Below, piece after piece: positions 536-32,915 of a stretch of DNA of 64,000 bases (position 1 is the stretch's first letter; each line of letters opens with the position of its first letter). Location: positions 620,001-684,000 of the forward strand of contig CP089274.1 in the NCBI GenBank assembly GCA_023920165.1, read 5' to 3'. Both the position numbers and the translations under genes were made by a program. The notes under the pieces were generated by a model. It was given only the letters and a program-made list of their open reading frames with translations, was not told the DNA's origin and made no database searches. This stretch comes from Curvularia clavata (Eukaryota).

Positions 536-2064
536 CCTTGATGCTGAAATGATGAAAAACGGTACGACTGATATAACAGCTCTTCGATGGATTTATAGCT
601 GACGTTTTTTTATAGCAATCTCCTGTACATGTCCTTGTGGAAACGTCTTCCTGAATAACAATATTTGGAACAAACACAACTTGAACAGGAACGCGTGAGT
701 AAAAGTAGTTTTACTTTTTCATGGTATGACGCCAACGACTCACGTCTGCTAAGGAAAACCGGCCCCTTCTGTATGGACGCGCTGCGTGTCCAGTAGGCCA
801 CGTATGTCCACGACCAAATATCTAGGTTGAACTGGAATGCGGGTAGTAATCTGGAGCTGAGTATATTGTACGTTGTCGTTAAAAATAGAGTATGTAGATG
901 TACAATTGTTGAGGAAAAGATACAAAATGGTACGTTGTGGAAGTAATAGACTAGGTAGATCTGACAAGTAAAGAAACCTACGCACGAGCCCCTGAACCCA
1001 ACTCGCTAGCGGCCCTCCCGCGTTATCTGCCTTTGATCACCAGTCTAGACCCCGCCGGATCTCCATTACTGCATTTCAACTTCATGCACGTCTGATATTG
1101 GAACATTTCTTCCAACAGCAGTGAGTATTTTACGTTTACACCCTACCTAGTCATGACTTTTGAATTCTTTCTCTCCCAACCAAAACCACGTCACACACAT
1201 CCATCCACAGCCAAACAAGCAAGACGATCGTGCAGCAAATGCATTTCTGGCAGAGACTTTACTGTGCCGATAACTTTCAAAGGCTTTGGCCTACTTTGTA
1301 AGTTGCTAGTAAGCACAGCTGAAATGCGAATTGCAGGATGAGTCTCTGGAAAGTTGGTATCATTCCAGCCATAGTGCCAAGCCTCTGTACAACCGGATCC
1401 TAGTTGGAACTGGACAGCATTTCCAAGAGTTTAGAATTCGTATCCTGCTACAGCCCTTGTTGCCTTACTGTTCGCGTTTTACGAGCAAACATCGGATGCG
1501 ACAACTGTTTCATCCCACAAGTGCTCGGTTTCGCTCAACGTTTGTTCTCTCTTCAACCTTGTCACTTCCTCGACAAGTGATAGATGGTGACAGACACGTC
1601 GTCGGTCATCCTCACGGTCGAGTCTGTGACGGACGAGGATTCTGCTCACGTTCCTCTCTTTTTTGAAGGAGTGCGCACTAATCCCGCAGATATGTCCTTG
1701 AATCATGAGGCCGTAATGTCTAGTTTTCTCGTACAAATAACATAACACTAACTCGCTCGACCGCTACGCGCACTCTGCAACCTGTCACAGGACTAATGGC
1801 ACATTAAAATAAACAAAGCCTGATACAATGCAGGTAATTGAGTGGCTAATACATGAGACGCGATTTTTCAGGCGTATGCACTGATGGAGACGAAGCAGAG
1901 CACAAACAATGCAGTGTTTACGTATGATTATTATATGAAAACAGATACCGATCGTGAGGGTCATAGGTCATTGCGAGAACGCCCATGAAAGTCTAATGCA
2001 ACTAGAAAGGCAAAAGCTCGACCGGGCATAAGTCGTTGCTACGGACAGGGGGATGTCGCCGCGA

Positions 2065-2970
2065 CTATGAGCGGAGCATAGTGGGATGCGGGGAAGGCGA
2101 TCGTCCACGGAGCATCGGTGTGCTAGGCTTGAGCATCGGGCTGGCGGTAGCGCTCATGGCGTCGAGACTGAGCTTGCTTATAGCGTCGAGGTTGCCCTGC
2201 ACGTCTTCTTTGCTAAGGTCAAGCATGAGGCGAAGCTCGTTAGCTTTAAGCGGCTTTCCGAGACCAACTGCCAACTGCGTGTTGCTGTTGGAACCCGGAA
2301 CGTCGTAGTAGTACCACCGGTAACCTATGTCTTCGAGGCGATGTGGCTCAGCGGGAGTCGTCAGCCTTGCGACAATGCGCCTGACATCCATTCCAAACAC
2401 TCCTGATATCAGCGGCTCGGTGCCGATTCCTCCCAAACTGGCCTCGGATCTGCCGCGCAGGGATGGAGGGACTTTGGCATCTTTCTCGAGAGGTGTCTCG
2501 TTGATGCGGTTAGAAGCGCCAGCATCGCGAAGCTTGGCTCGCTTGAATGTTGCATTCTTAAGCTCGGTCAGACCGAGAACAATGTATAGAGGCTTCCCCG
2601 CCTGAATCTGTTCGGCCATCCAAGTGCGGGCGCCGGCGTCACCGCAGACAGCCTCGAACGCCTTGGAGGGACTCTGGGTTGTACATTGTATCATCTGCTC
2701 AGCCTTGACTGTGAGCAGGTTAGGCTGTCGGTATATTCTCCCGAGATCGAACTTGGCGCCATAGTTTGTCATGAAACGACCCTCGGTATCGAGAGAATAG
2801 AGGTCTTTGTAGCGGAGCTGGATGTGGAAGTCGTTGAGCTCGTCGACTTCGGAGTGGGCTTTGTCGGGGTAGAACGAGTCTTGCTCTGGGTGCAGCGGGT
2901 CCGTGAGCAGCTGGCCGACGACGACATCGCTGGCAGGGATGGGCTTGGGCAGGAGGGCGTTCTGCACCAT
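2065..2970 (-). CDS. Putative fungal gasdermin-like (RCD-1/HET-Q1 family) protein, 301 aa
   Basis: Intronless ORF with gene-like codon usage. Motifs VVVGQLLTDPLHP, W...GKPLYIVLGL and VFGMDVRRI occur in the order of the conserved fungal gasdermin core blocks. The CDS is well supported; the family call is an inference. Confidence 0.6.
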   Translation of the reverse strand: MVQNALLPKPIPASDVVVGQLLTDPLHPEQDSFYPDKAHSEVDELNDFHIQLRYKDLYSLDTEGRFMTNYGAKFDLGRIYRQPNLLTVKAEQMIQCTTQSPSKAFEAVCGDAGARTWMAEQIQAGKPLYIVLGLTELKNATFKRAKLRDAGASNRINETPLEKDAKVPPSLRGRSEASLGGIGTEPLISGVFGMDVRRIVARLTTPAEPHRLEDIGYRWYYYDVPGSNSNTQLAVGLGKPLKANELRLMLDLSKEDVQGNLDAISKLSLDAMSATASPMLKPSTPMLRGRSPSPHPTMLRS

Positions 2971-4299
2971 TGTTGCGGGACTCGGAGATGGCGGGCTCTA
3001 TATCTTGTACCGTGTCGAGAGTGAGTCGGGGGATAAGGTACTCAGTGTTGGCTGAGCTGGAGGGGCAGGGTGACGCAGGAGCAAAAGTATGGTGAGAGCT
3101 CTCATGGCTGCGAATCAGAGGGTTGCATCAGGCCCTGTGGCAGATGCTTGGCCCATCGGGGTCGGCCGTCGGTCCTGATTCCTCGCACACAGAGTCGCGA
3201 CATTAACATCGGATTCACCATGACTCGCCGCGCCAGACACCGGACGGGCTACCATCAAGATGAAATATCGCGGTCGGCACCAAGGTCCTATTATCACGTG
3301 CCAGAACGGTGCCGGAGAAACGAGAGGCCGCTACGCTGACGCGGGCCGTGTACGAGAGAGAGACGCGCCATATCTTGGGTCCCGCGCCGGCCGCCGTCCG
3401 CCATGGGTGAGAAGCATTACCTGATCGCTGATACTCTGGACTGGAACGGGCGGCAGCCATACGGCTGACCGGATCCGCATCGTATTCCAGAGACTTTGGA
3501 CCTGCGCAGAGATTTTCGGAGGCTTTCCTTGCTCAAGTGCTGCTACACATGCAGGGTCCAGCAGAGTTCTCCGATCCTCATCGACCATCGACCATCAAGA
3601 GAAAGAGCTGAGTAACACTGACCAAAGACACGGCGTAACACCAAGAATGCAGGCGAGACAGCACCAGAGTCCTAATCTGTCGAATGTTAATCACAGGCAC
3701 ATGGCCATGTGGACGGCGCGCAAGCTGCGGACAGGCTGAATGCGAGGGCAGCCATAAGGACAGTCTTTGTCAACGATATAATCGCTGACAGTGCATGCCG
3801 TGCATCGACGGCGGGGTTCCACCTTGGGAACCATCCCCGCTGTTGTTGGAGACTCTCGGGGAAATGCGCCTGGCAGAAGACAACATGTGCTGTTTCAGTC
3901 ACGATAACAACACGCTGCAACTGCATACAGTCTGCGTGGAGAGCCACAATGGCCATGTCAATTGCAGACGGGCGTGCATACAGCTGCAGAAGCAATAGAC
4001 AATCGGGAAAAGACGCCAAGGGGTGCGGCGCCGAAGAGCTAGCAGAGGGGCATCAACGTCACGGCCGGACCAACCCACTAACTACCTCGACCCCACCATC
4101 AACAGCTAGGATCCCAGCCGAACGCCGTAGCCCAAACCATCCACAAAATGGAGCCATTGGCAAATGCCCCCCGGAAGCATGACGTCGCACCACCATGGCA
4201 CTATTGGATCGAGCTACACGTCACTCGGGACCCAGCGCCCCTCTCGAGCCACTAACGCGAGCTTCGCCAACAGCTCTCCCAGCTCCCTCGAGTACTTGA

Positions 4300-5352
<1,053 letters not shown>

Positions 5353-5770
5353 TAATTTGGTCACATCAATAAAGCTTCGCAGGTTCACACAATACTTCTT
5401 GCACATGTCGTCTATCGTTCTTTGCCGTGTAACAATGATGAATTTGATTCGAATCGAAGACGAGACGTGTTGGAAGAAGAAATTTACACATGCAGGAACA
5501 GGGCAACGCAACAGGTCGGGCATGTGATTTCCCGGCTATCTCTTATCGCTGATAGGGCTGACCGATGCGGGACAACGGGCCCTCCCCCTCCCCTCCAAGT
5601 CGGCTACTTGGTTATTTTTCCCCGCAATCCAGCTAGCGAATCGGCATCTTCAGCCGCGGCAAGAGCTGAACTTGTCAAAGAAACATATGCACATCTCACG
5701 CACCGTTTCATAAAGCCATGACACCCAATGTCTGTCAGCTAGATCCAACCCAGCGACCCCTCCACCCACC

Positions 5771-7167
5771 ATGAGCGCCCCGAAGCAAGAAACCTTTGGC
5801 AACCTAGGCCCCTGGGCCGAACCCTCATGGTTCTCATCCCTCGCCTCCCCTTACTACAACGCCTCACATAAGAAACTACGCAACACGATACGCGCTTATG
5901 TCGACGAGCACATCAAACCGCACATGCTGGAATGGGAAGAAGCTGGCGGAGCTCCGCACTCGGAGCGCCTGAAATGGGCGCAGACTGGATTCTCCTTCAC
6001 AGACATACCCACGGCATATCGGCCTGGCAATGTCCCTGGGCCTGCGGGCATCCCCGTCGACCAGCTGGATGTGTTTCATCTGATGATTATGACGGACGAG
6101 ATGAGTCGGATTGAGGGCGGTGTGGCGACGTCGCTCGAGGGCGCGAGCGTGATTGGAGCACCGCCGATTGTGCATTATGGGACGGAGGAGCAGAAGAGGA
6201 AGTGGTTGCCGGGTTTATTTAGCTGGGAGACGAGTTTTTGTCTAGGGATTACGGAGCCAGGGGGTGGGGTAGGTTATTCATTCCCTCTTTACTACTACTG
6301 GTTTTATTGTTGAAATAATTGTTGTTGGCGTTGGAGTCTCAGTCACTAACACACACACCACAGTCCGACGTCGCCAACCTACAAACCACCGCGACCAAAA
6401 CTCCCGACGGAAAATCCTACATCGTGAACGGCTACAAGAAATGGATCACGGGCATTCCATGGGCCACACACATGACTACAGCCGTCCGCACTGGCGGCCC
6501 CGGCGCCTCTGGCCTCTCGCTCCTCGTCATCCCCGTCTCCTCACCTGGCCTCACCCACCGCCGCATCCCCAACAGCGGCCAAAAAGCCGGCGGCGCCTCC
6601 TTTGTCGAACTCGACAACGTGCGTGTCCCCGTGGAAAACCTCATCGGGCCTGAAAACGGCGGATTCCCAATTATAATGCGCAATTTCAACCGCGAGCGCT
6701 TCATCATGAGCATCTCGTGTAACCGCAAAGCACGAACTTGTCTCTCCCACTCATTTGCCTATGCGTCTACACGGCATACGTTTGGGAAACCGCTCATTGC
6801 GAACCAAATTATAGCGAGTAAACTGGCTACCATTGCGAGATACGTAGAGTCGCATTGGGCGTGGCTGGAGCAACTTGCGTTCCATATTCAGGCGTCGCCC
6901 AAGGGGTGGCAGGACCCGAGTATCGCGGGGCAGATTGCGCTGAGTAAAGTGCATGGCGGACGGATACTCGAGCTGGCGGCGAGAGAGGCGCAGCAGGTGT
7001 TTGGAGGTGCGGGGTATCAGAAGGGAGGGGGTCCTGGGGCTGTGGTGGAGCAGATTAGTAGGGATTTGAGGATGATGGTGGTTGGGGGTGGGAGTGAGGA
7101 GATTATTGCGGATCTGGCGGTTAGGCAGGAGGTGGGGCTTGCGAAGAGGAGGGGGTGGAAGTTGTGA
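5771..7167 (+). CDS. Acyl-CoA dehydrogenase family protein
   Basis: Intron 6269..6363 joins ITEPGGG to SDVA. Also NGYKKWIT, QVFGGAGY and GGGSEEI motifs; ends WKL. Confidence 0.9.
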
Positions 7168-7533: not shown

Positions 7534-8744
7534 TTATGCAGCTACCGCCACTGGTAACTGTTCAAGCGCCTCTTGCTCTGGCTCCTCCTTCTCCTCAATG
7601 GTAGCAGGTACCTCGACCTCTGGCGTCTCTGATCGCAAGTCGCACTCTTTTGAAAGTCGCGACGGCTTCTCAATGCCAGCATCGACGGTGACGTACGAGG
7701 TTGCATCGCATCCCTCGCCGTAAAAGTCGCATGGTGCGAGATCACCCAGAGGCCTACGGTCCTCGTCCATGGCGTCTTGAGCAAGCTTGCGCGAGTTACG
7801 GCGCTTGACAGGCGAGTCATTGAGAATCTCAGTCTCGTAGCCGTCGTCCTCGATAAGAGAAGCAGCTTGAGAGCGGGGCTGAGAGGCACGGAAGTCTGGT
7901 GGTGGGATGTTCTCCTTTCCGCGGTCCTCGTTGCGGGTCTTAGCCTCGACATCGTCATCAGATGAGATGTCGAGAACAGAGGCAGAGTGCTCCATGAGGT
8001 TTGCAGCCTCTTGCTCAGGCGTGTCCTCGTGAATCTCGAAGAACCAAGCCTTGGGCATGGACTCGTCGAGAACGGTGACTTGACGAGCGGGTGCTGAGAC
8101 GGGGGTTGCAGCTACCGTGGGTGCCTTTGGAGTGTAGGTGGAGATGGACCCGCTGAGCGCTGCATCAATGGAGAAGGGTAGCTTGGGGCTGCTCTGGGAG
8201 AAAGACGGAGGGTCAACGCGTCGGAAGGGCGAGCTGGACGCGCGACGCTTGGAAATGGCATGGAGACGCTTGTTCTTTGGTGATCCACGGCTGTTGGTGA
8301 TGGGAGTCGACTTGGTGGAGCTGGGCGAAGAGAGGGCCTTGCGGGTAGAGGGGACAGAAGGCGTGGCATTGAGGCTGGTGCTGGTCTTGACGGGCGAAGT
8401 GAAGATGGCGAACGGGGCGGGCTTGACGTATCCAGCATCGTTGGTGGAGGTGGTTTTTGACTTTTTGGTTGGGCTGCCGGTGATGAAAGGGTCCACGTTC
8501 TCGGAATCGGCATCCTCGAAGATCTCCGGCGCGCGCTGGCGCTTACCCGTCGAAGAGCCGGGCGTAGACTTCAAACCTTGCAACGCCGCAAAGCTGGAGA
8601 TGGCTATACGAATGCGCGGTTAGCAAATGGCACACTACACGTAATTCAAGGCTCTTTACAATTCTGTTTGTTTTTTGCGCTCTGGAGTCCTTGAAGCCGG
8701 GACGTGCCGAGCTCGGCAAATGGCTGGCGCGTCGAAGTAGCCAT
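7534..8744 (-). CDS. Disordered cell-cycle protein with ABBA/KEN/D-box motifs (putative Acm1-like APC/C inhibitor)
   Basis: Exon 1 MATSTRQPFAELGTSRLQGLQSAKNKQN is joined through intron 8659..8604 in frame to the 349-aa ORF. Contains FEIHED, KENIPP, RRPLGDL and several S/TP-x-K/R sites. Confidence 0.75.
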
Positions 8745-9992: not shown

Positions 9993-11321
9993 CTAGTACT
10001 TGGCCACACGGGCGGGGGTCTCGCCCCAATTAGCATTCCAATACGTCGCGTTATCCTCGTCGGAGCTACTCGCGTATCCGCCATTGCTTCTTCCGTTGCT
10101 CCCGTCCTCCCAGCCATGCTGATTTTCAACGCGTATTTCTTCCCGAGACGTGCCGCGTCGACGTGACATGGCTGTGTCGTGATAACTTCGCACACTTTCT
10201 ATTAATGACGAGCGTATACTATTTGAACCTGCAATACTGACGTCACTGATTGTCTTGCGTCGCTCGAATCCGTCCCAGGTTGCTTCGCTAAAGGAGCGCG
10301 CTGGACCGTCGAACCCATGTTGCTGGAATGAAGTCTCACTCTCGGTCCAGTCAGGATTGTCTACAGCTTCGGATCCATGACTCCACCTTTCGGGGCTGTT
10401 GGGTCGACCAGTTGCACAAGCAAATGGGTGAGGCAACTTGGATGGCGAGACCCAGCCTTTGTTCTCGTTGGTACTCCCGTTGGAACTGCGAGCATTTCCC
10501 GTCGTGCTATTTTGCGAGCCGTCTTTCCAACCTGTCACCTTCGCCATGAAGCCTTTTTGCGACCGGATAGACGCTTTGCTAGTAGACGAGGACCCATCTT
10601 CATCCTCTGACTCCGGTATAGGCGAGAGTGGTCGGGGTGAGTTTGGGATGTAGTTCCACTTATCTTTCTCGTGTCTCCTCTTTGCTACTTCGGCATCCTC
10701 TGCAAACCCTCTCGTACTCATGTACTGATCCCGTGGAGGCAGTACTGTCGAAGGTGCTACAGGAAAAGGCGACGACGATTCGACTGTAGAAGCGGCTCGG
10801 ACCCAACGTCGCTCGTGCTGCTTTTCATTGTGAACTTTCCGCGGTCCAGAATCAAATTCTCCTTCTTCATCCACCACAACAACCCGTCCATCCTTGTCCT
10901 TGATAACGAACGTCCCCCATCGCCGTGGCACAGGCACAAGCACCTTTTTTTTCTCTTTCTCCATTTCTCTACCCTTCTTTACCTTCCTCACCTGCACCTT
11001 ACCTCGCAAATCCCGAATCTTATCCATATGGCGCCGTACATCACCACTCACGGCTTTCTTCGCATTCTCATTCCAAACCTGCTCGTCACCCTTCTTCCTG
11101 GTTTCTTCTTTTTCATGTCTTGCTTGTCTGTCTGATATACTACTACTACGCAGCACTATGTCCTCGTCGTCATCGACAAAGCTGCCCGTGTACGCTGAAG
11201 TGTCTGAGAAGGTGCCTCGTGAAACCCATTTTGCTACCCGCTGCTTGTCGAGGCCTTGGGGTAAGCGGTTGGCTATAGAGCCGCCGTCGTCGAGGAAAGA
11301 CGGCGGTGTTATGGCGCTCAT
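9993..11321 (-). CDS. Hypothetical low-complexity protein, 442 aa
   Basis: Long ATG-initiated ORF, charged and Ser-rich, with no recognisable domain. Confidence 0.55.
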   Translation of the reverse strand: MSAITPPSFLDDGGSIANRLPQGLDKQRVAKWVSRGTFSDTSAYTGSFVDDDEDIVLRSSSISDRQARHEKEETRKKGDEQVWNENAKKAVSGDVRRHMDKIRDLRGKVQVRKVKKGREMEKEKKKVLVPVPRRWGTFVIKDKDGRVVVVDEEGEFDSGPRKVHNEKQHERRWVRAASTVESSSPFPVAPSTVLPPRDQYMSTRGFAEDAEVAKRRHEKDKWNYIPNSPRPLSPIPESEDEDGSSSTSKASIRSQKGFMAKVTGWKDGSQNSTTGNARSSNGSTNENKGWVSPSKLPHPFACATGRPNSPERWSHGSEAVDNPDWTESETSFQQHGFDGPARSFSEATWDGFERRKTISDVSIAGSNSIRSSLIESVRSYHDTAMSRRRGTSREEIRVENQHGWEDGSNGRSNGGYASSSDEDNATYWNANWGETPARVAKY

Positions 11322-31564: not shown

Positions 31565-32915
31565 CAGTACTAACGCATAAGTTTCGCGACACGGGCCGAA
31601 TTCCGCCCCACACCAAATCTTACCCACCATGATTTCACCACTAAAATTACCACCAAAACAGCATATTTTTGAAGTCTGACAAATATATTTTGTTCCTAAA
31701 TACTAGTATTTAGTTTGCCAGCCTTTTGCAGCTCGACAAGCTGCTAGACGGCGCGGCATAGAGCCAATTAGAGCCTCAATATACCTGCGTGGTATACGCC
31801 GCCAGCAGTCTTTTAGAGCCTTACAAAAACCATTCCACTCTTCCTCTGCTACGCTATAATTGTTATATTGTGGGTAGAATATATGCATGCGTTTTTTGAG
31901 AAGCCACCAAAGATGCTCAATAGGATTGAGATCTGGTGAGAAGGCTGGCCAGTCGAGTATTGTAATCTGGTGCTCGGTAAGAAATATTTGGACGACTTGA
32001 GACGTGTGTATACGCGCGTTGTCTTGCATGAAGAGCTGATTCGGACGGTAGTGAGGGAGTAGACCTTGACGAAGGACTTTGATGTAGCTTTGGCTGGAGT
32101 AGCCACCGCGGGCGGCATTGGGATCCCTTTCCATAATGATGAGACGACTCCGGCGACCGCGCCCACGTTCATCCAGCCATATAGCTCCCCACACCATCTG
32201 TTGTGCTATTTTGCCAGCGGGTATTTCTGTTATCATTCGTCTCTTCCATTTCTCTTCTGGATAGCGAAAAAACCACTCAGTTGTGGCGCCAGAGCCCTTC
32301 TGAATGGAGCACTCGTCTGAGAACTTAACTATGTGACGACGCCAAGAAAAGCTGCGGTACTTGCGAGCGAATAGCAGACGCTTGTAGGCATGAGATGGAG
32401 TAATTTTTGGACGTTTTTTGCAGCGGTGATTGCGTATATTTTGACTTTTAAGCACTCGGTATAATGTATCGTGGCTAGGAGGCTTCGAAAGAGTGCCATC
32501 AGGCTGCACTACAACTGCTACTTGGGCAAGCTGTTTGTATAGAATTTTTGGTGTTGCGCGTATAGCCCGATATATAATCTTTTTCTGACGAGTCGAAAGT
32601 ATATGTGGACGCCCGGATCGAGGCCTGTCACGCGTAGTGGCAGTAGTGGAGAACTTTTCTTGTAGTCGGTAGATAGTAGAGCGCGCGCGTCCAAACTTGG
32701 CTGCGACTTCTGACACTGGTACGCCCCCCTGTAACATGCCGATTGCAATATTTCGCTCGTCTACTGTCATATTTAGACCGCGCACCATCGTTTTCTGCAC
32801 TCAGCGCTCGAATTAGTGCAGTGGTGGGGTGGTGGTGGGCATTCAAAGTGGTGGTGGAGGTGGTGGTTGGTGGGGTGGTTGGCGCTAGTGTCGCGAAACT
32901 TTAGCGGAGGCACTG
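31565..32915 (-). mobile_element. Tc1/mariner (impala-like) transposon B, intact
   Basis: TA at 31563-4 and 32916-7. Imperfect TIRs CAGTACTAACGCATAAGTTTCGCGACAC and (reverse complement) CAGTGCCTCCGCTAAAGTTTCGCGACAC. Length 1351 bp. Confidence 0.93.
31703..32788 (-). CDS. DD34E Tc1-family transposase, 361 aa
   Basis: N-terminal HTH with RSGRP, then FSDE, MQDNARIH and SPDLNPIE. There are 34 residues between the second D and the E. Confidence 0.95.
   Translation of the reverse strand: MVRGLNMTVDERNIAIGMLQGGVPVSEVAAKFGRARSTIYRLQEKFSTTATTRDRPRSGRPHILSTRQKKIIYRAIRATPKILYKQLAQVAVVVQPDGTLSKPPSHDTLYRVLKSQNIRNHRCKKRPKITPSHAYKRLLFARKYRSFSWRRHIVKFSDECSIQKGSGATTEWFFRYPEEKWKRRMITEIPAGKIAQQMVWGAIWLDERGRGRRSRLIIMERDPNAARGGYSSQSYIKVLRQGLLPHYRPNQLFMQDNARIHTSQVVQIFLTEHQITILDWPAFSPDLNPIEHLWWLLKKRMHIFYPQYNNYSVAEEEWNGFCKALKDCWRRIPRRYIEALIGSMPRRLAACRAAKGWQTKY

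Follow-up and report, generated by a model that had tools for sequence, protein, structure and literature searches.

What keeps a fungal gasdermin silent, and what would release it, when no protease is encoded beside its gene? To our knowledge, what triggers the known microbial gasdermins is either an adjacent protease (HET-Q1 and the bacterial proteins) or a clash of alleles (RCD-1), and microbial gasdermins are usually viewed as fast-evolving weapons of immunity or allorecognition. The question is raised by a 64,000-nucleotide stretch of the Curvularia clavata genome (contig CP089274.1 of assembly GCA_023920165.1, positions 620,001 to 684,000), referred to here as the window, in which an open reading frame (ORF) of 301 codons runs from ATG to TAG on the minus strand at positions 2065-2970. 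A first-pass annotation made from the letters alone had reported this ORF, without its strand, as a gasdermin of a non-canonical clade; the ORF list and the translation agree with it on the reading frame, on three blocks likened to the cores of HET-Q1 and RCD-1 (residues 16-28, 116-134, and 190-199) and on a Ser/Pro-rich string that corresponds to residues 277-301. The protein is very probably a member of the fungal gasdermin-like family (HET-Q1/RCD-1 kind), and sequence comparison places it in a distinct, slow-evolving group of one-to-one orthologues of the Pleosporomycetidae, a branch with its own tail and without a neighbouring protease, for which the designation non-canonical clade is apt.

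The comparison with gasdermin structures that had been suggested at the outset was carried out with predicted models, not experimental structures. Two AlphaFold2 models were used, one derived from 28 orthologues (predicted local distance difference test, pLDDT, 74.9; predicted template modelling score, pTM, 0.69) and a second from 150 family members (pLDDT 81.2, pTM 0.81). The top Foldseek match in the PDB was RCD-1-2 (8jyy_G, E 3.3e-4, probability 1.00), with the RCD-1 pore and bacterial gasdermins ranking next, at low template modelling (TM) scores of 0.27-0.45. An aligner independent of Foldseek, with which both models were compared to 48,161 chains, returned only gasdermins of fungi, bacteria, Trichoplax and mammals at ranks 1-12 in each run. 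The scores of the two models were 8.9 and 7.9 for RCD-1-2, 7.8 and 7.7 for the RCD-1 pore, 7.5 and 7.2 for RCD-1-1, 6.3-7.4 and 5.3-6.7 for bacterial gasdermins and 6.8 and 6.0 for the Trichoplax gasdermin, and those of GSDME, GSDMA3, and GSDMD ranged from 4.8 to 6.0 over both runs. The gasdermin-N fold is thus present in the core of the protein as modelled.

Homology at the sequence level was reached through intermediate family members. A phmmer search against 1.84 billion representatives detected 88 proteins at E up to 1e-3, and the matches past the close orthologues were mostly fungal proteins of 230-280 amino acids with 23-37% identity, residues 5-256 being covered. When the profile of 28 orthologues was aligned with a profile of 26 paralogues by hhalign, the match extended over 247 columns (core residues 5-253) with a probability of 100 and an E-value of 9.3e-58. 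The paralogue profile includes P0193, i.e., GenBank CUS09401.1 of Tuber aestivum (phmmer E 1.1e-5), which Clavé et al. (2022) enter in their Dataset S1 among the het-Q1 homologues that have no protease neighbour (PMC8851545); the sequence link to HET-Q1 runs via this listed homologue and not via the HET-Q1 sequence itself. In a protein-language-model atlas, unnamed Ascomycota clusters scored 0.96-0.97 and rank 17 (score 0.94) was a cluster in which 13% of the members carry PF26164 Bact_GSDM. The three blocks sit in consensus columns conserved across the 28 orthologues and the distant paralogues, which indicates that they are not due to chance, and the near-invariant core residues of the family are kept in the orthogroup. 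With only gasdermins at the top of the fold searches and an unambiguous profile homology to the het-Q1-like family, the initial family call is upheld.

Standard models were silent on this family. Neither Pfam (E up to 10) nor PADLOC (E up to 1) gave any family for the 301-residue protein; likewise, none of the 31 family members in alignment A2 matched in PADLOC and the Pfam gasdermin models matched none of the 31 distant members. Since members of the family go unmatched as well, it follows that the gasdermin models of both collections miss the fungal family. Searches of PDB sequences gave chance matches only (E 0.53 for the single protein, 0.58 for profile A2, and 0.45 for profile A3), so that RCD-1 is out of reach by sequence from this protein, and the HET-Q1 pore entry 9UV9 was unmatched in the PDB sequence copy that was searched.

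The two predicted models share one topology, a beta-sheet core of about 240 residues with 218-223 and 232-240 as its last strands, followed by helices and a disordered end. Because the core strands end at residue 240, the C-terminal extension comprises residues 243-301, or about 59 amino acids in both models, and not the approximately 95 extra residues of the original estimate. Six positions of the helical segment 243-276 are invariant in the 28 aligned orthologues (L246, R247, M249, I264, L267, and S268). The helices of the extension have pLDDT values of about 60 or lower, those from residue 289 onward fall below 50 and no confident placement of the tail against the core emerges from the models.

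With respect to the putative membrane hairpins, the pores of HET-Q1 and RCD-1 are described in PMC13475620 as the shortest known, with short strands. The first hairpin of the protein had been called short; however, the region measures 53 residues in each of the 117 full-length orthologues, with a paralogue median of 52. The second region measures 76 residues vs 73 in paralogues, and its tip has a pLDDT below 50 at residues 175-183 in the AlphaFold2 model derived from 150 family members. The description of this second hairpin as polar and containing Pro was correct in direction, although the effect is modest: orthologues have a mean Kyte-Doolittle hydropathy of about -0.9 to -1.1 over residues 151-175 (approximate limits), compared with -0.2 to -0.4 for paralogues; the tip is more polar by roughly 0.7-1.3 units, and the median number of Pro residues in the tip is three against two. 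A conserved basophilic phosphosite at the same tip was considered and discarded, as no more than 72 of 116 orthologues contain an RRxS/RGRS-type motif and Ala or Thr often takes the place of the Ser.

The gene model is backed by 135 database proteins; the best 120 of them are 61-98% identical to the window protein and mostly 296-305 residues long, with both termini in common. An upstream exon or an alternative start was ruled out by the in-frame stop that bounds the ORF and by the identical start Met in all orthologues. ORFs on the opposite strand overlap the 2065-2970 span in the ORF list and are read as by-products of a G+C-rich coding sequence (local G+C 0.57). Two database records have 295 of 301 residues identical to the window protein, and four Bipolaris species share 268-273. 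Named orthologues occur in many families of the Pleosporales, in Glonium (Gloniales) and in Mytilinidion and Lophium (Mytilinidiales), all within the Pleosporomycetidae and all annotated as "hypothetical". The first-pass annotation had called the ORF an orphan, a term that fits in that no protease neighbours it but not otherwise, considering that it has at least 117 full-length orthologue clusters.

The evolution of this group is slow. In a quick maximum-likelihood tree of 51 rows, for which support was estimated only by the Shimodaira-Hasegawa-like approximate likelihood ratio test (SH-aLRT), the 17 sampled orthologues make up one side of a branch with a support of 98, and their end branches of 0.05-0.23 (median over all 51 rows, 0.54) follow the species. 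Their nearest relatives in the tree are P0124, which has the tail, and then P0126, without it. Comparison with 13 orthologous coding sequences (CDSs) from metagenome loci gave nonsynonymous divergences (dN) of 0.08-0.25 and synonymous divergences (dS) at or past saturation; the ratio of both (omega) was about 0.03-0.08 where computable, equally low in tail and core, values that are rough because dS is saturated in most pairs. Furthermore, an identical protein is found under 2-4 accessions each in Bipolaris sorokiniana, B. maydis, Pyrenophora tritici-repentis, and P. teres. Slow evolution and the same protein in several accessions are the opposite of an allorecognition locus.

The most constrained part of the extension is its end. 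Residues 277-296 are nearly invariant in the 28 aligned orthologues, in all of which S277, P278, L280, S283, P285, L287, R288, G289, R290, S291, S293, and P294 are unchanged, and the motif R[GS]RS[PV]SP lies within the last 40 residues of every one of the 117 full-length orthologues. The last 30 residues of these proteins contain a median of four Ser/Thr-Pro dipeptides, and among the Pleosporaceae the tail shows 0-2 differences vs 23-45 over the whole protein. The net charge of the last 30 residues also sets the group apart, being +4 in the 117 orthologues whereas the median of 53 paralogues is -8. As for known binding motifs, a canonical 14-3-3 site in the tail was rejected, the Pro positions not fitting the consensus.

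Some peculiarities of the wider family may be recorded here. In 21 of 87 representative family matches (proteins P0130-P0208) the sequence terminates precisely with Gly-x-x-Gly-Phe, preceded by a strongly acidic segment. Since HET-Q1 is cut after a Phe (F238), one paralogue clade may have here a conserved motif, C-terminal or related to cleavage, or the ending may be an exon boundary of the gene models. In P0169 (561 amino acids) an N-terminal PNP_UDP_1 phosphorylase-superfamily domain (Pfam E 4.5e-7) is fused to a gasdermin-like C-terminal part aligning with query residues 3-219, and P0192 (6348 amino acids), a giant that may be a gene-model artefact, has three stretches like query residues 45-139 (E 7.6e-6).

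The chromosomal position of the gene is stable on one side only. It forms a head-to-head pair with an NADP-dependent mannitol dehydrogenase gene (88-96% identical in related loci) in all eight related loci with 2 kb or more of upstream sequence (L001, L002, L007, L008, L010, L011, L013, and L016), a count that leaves out nine other loci too short on the dehydrogenase side; the other flank differs between related loci. The first reading had found no protease nearby, and in agreement with this no peptidase family was detected in the window among 33 scanned ORFs of the 50 with at least 150 amino acids, overlapping antisense frames being omitted. The left flank of the window is only 2 kb, and that side was covered by the relatives. 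No S8, CHAT or caspase-like protease appeared among 55 ORFs scanned in eight related loci, namely 20 listed ORFs and 35 of 121 stop-to-stop ORFs, the rest of which were overlapping frames or L004/L005 duplicates. The families found there were RING, RWD, CID, chromo/HDA2-3, GH2, HET, methyltransferase, WDR26, DnaJ, Hap4-like, rhodopsin-like, and GH72. The HET domain belongs to a gene seen in L007 (9360-11130, minus strand) and not in the other loci, about 4 kb downstream of the gasdermin-like gene and past a GH2 gene, and the orthologue in that locus is 76% identical. According to PMC8851545, a protease lies within 10 kb of 80% of 1,884 het-Q1 homologues, the other 20% or so being without one; an adjacent protease is therefore a typical but not an obligatory feature of the family.

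How, then, might such a protein be controlled? In HET-Q1 the C-terminal segment A239-A277 keeps the protein inactive until HET-Q2 cuts after F238, as described in two sources (PMC8851545; PMC13475620), and the activation of RCD-1 is reported in the latter to proceed without cleavage. By analogy with the inhibitory tail of HET-Q1, the extension 243-301 would hold residues 1-242, a pore-forming gasdermin-N fold, in an inactive state. The permanently acidic tail of the paralogues would have been exchanged for a conserved helix and a basic disordered tail with a charge that phosphorylation can set: proline-directed phosphorylation at the four sites would change it from about +4 to about -4, restoring the inhibitory negative charge. 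The core would then be set free to oligomerize in the membrane, either by dephosphorylation or through the motif, which would recruit a partner or an unlinked protease. The tail would thereby be the control handle of the protein, and the invariant Arg-Gly-Arg-Ser-Pro-Ser-Pro motif a target of a kinase or phosphatase or a docking site for a partner. Taken as a whole, this reading of the protein as a tail-controlled pore-former is the preferred one, held tentatively. Its most specific version, a phosphorylation-gated gasdermin in which a kinase/phosphatase pair writes and erases the inhibitory charge at the four invariant Ser/Thr-Pro sites, allowing a reversible, protease-free firing for developmental or stress death across the Pleosporomycetidae, is clearly unlikely in that complete form.

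As regards its use, the lack of polymorphism together with the fixed synteny makes an endogenous programme of death or permeabilization likely, and the likely role is developmental or stress-induced cell death and not allorecognition. A precedent is found in Coccidioides posadasii, where, according to a preprint, maturation of the disjunctor cells needs the het-q1 homologue and its CHAT protease (preprint 10.64898/2026.10.27.762035).

A different explanation, possible though on the unlikely side, is a canonical gasdermin activated by a protease from a gene elsewhere in the genome, in which case the tail motif would be a docking site, the cut would fall near ELR-L (about residues 245-252) and phosphorylation would be irrelevant. 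The fifth or so of the 1,884 het-Q1 homologues that have no protease within 10 kb, as given in PMC8851545, agree with it, as does the presence in the same genomes of gasdermin pairs with S8 or CHAT proteases (Bipolaris, Exserohilum, and Corynespora in Dataset S1); however, each listed protease adjoins its own gasdermin gene and no candidate for the role was found. The ELR-L segment is common to protease-linked paralogues and the strict invariance of the motif, Gly289 included, would suit a binding site, but the shift of the tail charge from -8 to +4 suggests an altered control and not merely a protease gene that has moved.

It is also conceivable, if distinctly improbable, that the gasdermin fold has been repurposed and makes no lytic pores, serving instead a conserved, tail-regulated, non-lethal function such as lipid binding, membrane remodelling or unconventional secretion. 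Purifying selection, one-to-one orthologues and a stable synteny beside the housekeeping mannitol dehydrogenase resemble a housekeeping gene and not an immune executioner, and, compared with the paralogues, the second hairpin has a tip of higher polarity and charge. On the other hand, the lengths of both hairpin regions and the near-invariant core residues are kept, and an executioner of development can also be conserved, as the Coccidioides preprint suggests for het-q1.

That the protein is no gasdermin relative, its likeness being a chance arrangement of beta-sheets in a predicted model, is very improbable in view of the 12 of 12 top matches to gasdermins in two independent searches with two models, the direct link, by HMMER and by hhalign, to a listed het-Q1 homologue and the atlas match to the cluster with PF26164. 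A determinant of heterokaryon incompatibility like rcd-1 or het-Q1 is scarcely credible: both experimentally studied fungal gasdermin systems are allorecognition loci (PMC12881547), whereas here omega is below about 0.1, the short branches of the tree follow the species, several assemblies of one species encode an identical protein (2-4 accessions in four species), the synteny is conserved and no idiomorphic protease partner was found among the ORFs scanned in eight related loci.

There are hints that the gene is transcribed. Gap-free transcript-like contigs colinear with the CDS were found in two separate studies, one of 1063 nucleotides (X13, 1991-3053) and another of 1140 nucleotides (X15, 1910-3049), and an X9 contig stops at position 1721, where 22 T that do not align follow on the plus strand; such a run corresponds to the poly(A) tail of an RNA from the minus strand. 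These contigs hint at an unspliced polyadenylated mRNA of about 1.1-1.3 kb from the gasdermin-like gene; they are a hint and not a proof because the RNA nature of the X9, X13, and X15 runs is a computational guess, no matching run being recorded as RNA. The features of the locus are listed in Table 1.

Table 1. Features of the gasdermin-like gene and its divergent neighbour (positions in the window; domains named from predicted models).
Feature	Position	Strand	Remarks
CDS of the 301-residue gasdermin-like protein	2065..2970	-	Stop codon 2065-2067; without intron; orthologues of 296-305 residues agree at both ends
Gasdermin-N-like core, residues 1-242	2245..2970	-	Twisted beta-sheet and helices 101-124 (predicted)
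Putative first membrane hairpin region, residues 46-98	2677..2835	-	Strands 46-60 and 85-98 separated by a loop and a short helix; assigned from gasdermin topology by analogy
Putative second hairpin region, residues 128-204	2359..2589	-	Strands 128-147 and 188-204; tip (about 150-187) polar, basic, of low confidence
Helical segment, residues 243-276	2143..2244	-	Family-common ELR-L helix 243-249, then orthogroup-specific conserved amphipathic helix 257-272 (predicted)
Disordered Ser/Pro-rich tail, residues 277-301	2068..2142	-	Four Ser/Thr-Pro sites (S277, T284, S291, S293); invariant motif 288-294 at nucleotides 2089-2109
Probable mRNA	1721..3053	-	5' ends around 3049-3053; a single polyadenylated 3' end at 1721
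Divergent intergenic region, about 1.45 kb	2971..4422		Between the gasdermin-like and NADP-mannitol dehydrogenase genes
NADP-dependent mannitol dehydrogenase (short-chain dehydrogenase/reductase ORF)	4423-5355	+	Match to PDB 3gdf, E 7.1e-128

Beyond the mannitol dehydrogenase, an acyl-CoA dehydrogenase is encoded on the plus strand at 5771-7167 in two frames (5771-6313 and 6319-7167), and judging from the sequence the break at about 6313-6319 is consistent with a short intron or a frame change. Two minus-strand ORFs at 7534-8583 and 9993-11321 are without a Pfam family and are conserved in related loci at 74-79% and 40%, respectively. Further away, the minus-strand ORF at 31703-32800 encodes a Tc1/mariner-type transposase with DDE_3, HTH_Tnp_Tc3_2, and HTH_29 domains, located in a part of the window with lower G+C content (0.47-0.49 at 30-42 kb).

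Compared with known systems, the orthogroup may be set beside HET-Q1 of Podospora anserina and its homologues, with which it shares the core family by sequence profile, a similar core size, a C-terminal extension and ELR-L at the junction of core and tail. It differs in that no protease was found beside it in the loci scanned, where HET-Q1 has an adjacent S8/CHAT protease, in that the tail is basic, rich in Ser and Pro and provided with an invariant motif whereas that of the close paralogues is acidic, and in its slow, one-to-one evolution at a fixed syntenic position. From RCD-1-1 and RCD-1-2 of Neurospora crassa (8jyx, 8jyy, and 8jyz) it is separated by the lack of a sequence-level match when profiles were compared to PDB sequences; RCD-1 has two antagonistic, highly polymorphic alleles, and no such polymorphism was seen in this gene, and RCD-1 is without a comparable Ser/Pro tail in the aligned range. 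The Coccidioides het-q1/het-q2-like system, compared by role only, resembles it as a gasdermin homologue in developmental death, the role proposed here, but keeps a required adjacent CHAT protease, and none was found beside this orthogroup in the loci scanned.

Bacterial gasdermins carry an N-terminal palmitoyl-Cys. This cannot apply to the present protein, since it has no Cys in residues 1-95; moreover, no PADLOC or Pfam bacterial gasdermin model matches it, no adjacent protease was found in the loci scanned and its context is eukaryotic, unlike that of 7n50, 7n51, 7n52, and 8sl0. In mammals, inhibitory phosphorylation of a Thr near the N-terminus of GSDMA and GSDME gates pore formation. In these phospho-regulated gasdermins the sites are part of the N-domain and a large C-terminal domain must still be cleaved off, whereas in the fungal protein the candidate sites are grouped within a short disordered tail.

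The three supplementary tables of Clavé et al. (PMC8851545) contain none of 16 orthologue accessions, although about seven of the strains are represented in Dataset S1 by other gasdermin genes. Six orthologue locus tags were absent from the searchable literature and a literature search on gasdermin in Pleosporales returned nothing relevant. The kind is known, being that of fungal gasdermins; a slow-evolving, syntenic, protease-unlinked orthogroup with an invariant Ser/Pro-rich basic tail appears to be undescribed in the searchable papers and tables, the SI Appendix of PMC8851545 aside.

The orthogroup shows a profile opposite to that of a fast-evolving weapon: a single slow-evolving copy at a fixed chromosomal position, without a linked protease and with an invariant tail motif, throughout a large fungal subclass to which many crop pathogens belong. 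Provided that pores are still formed by the core, it would offer a tractable case for the control of a gasdermin by endogenous signalling, as well as for the part that programmed cell death plays in the normal life of filamentous fungi.

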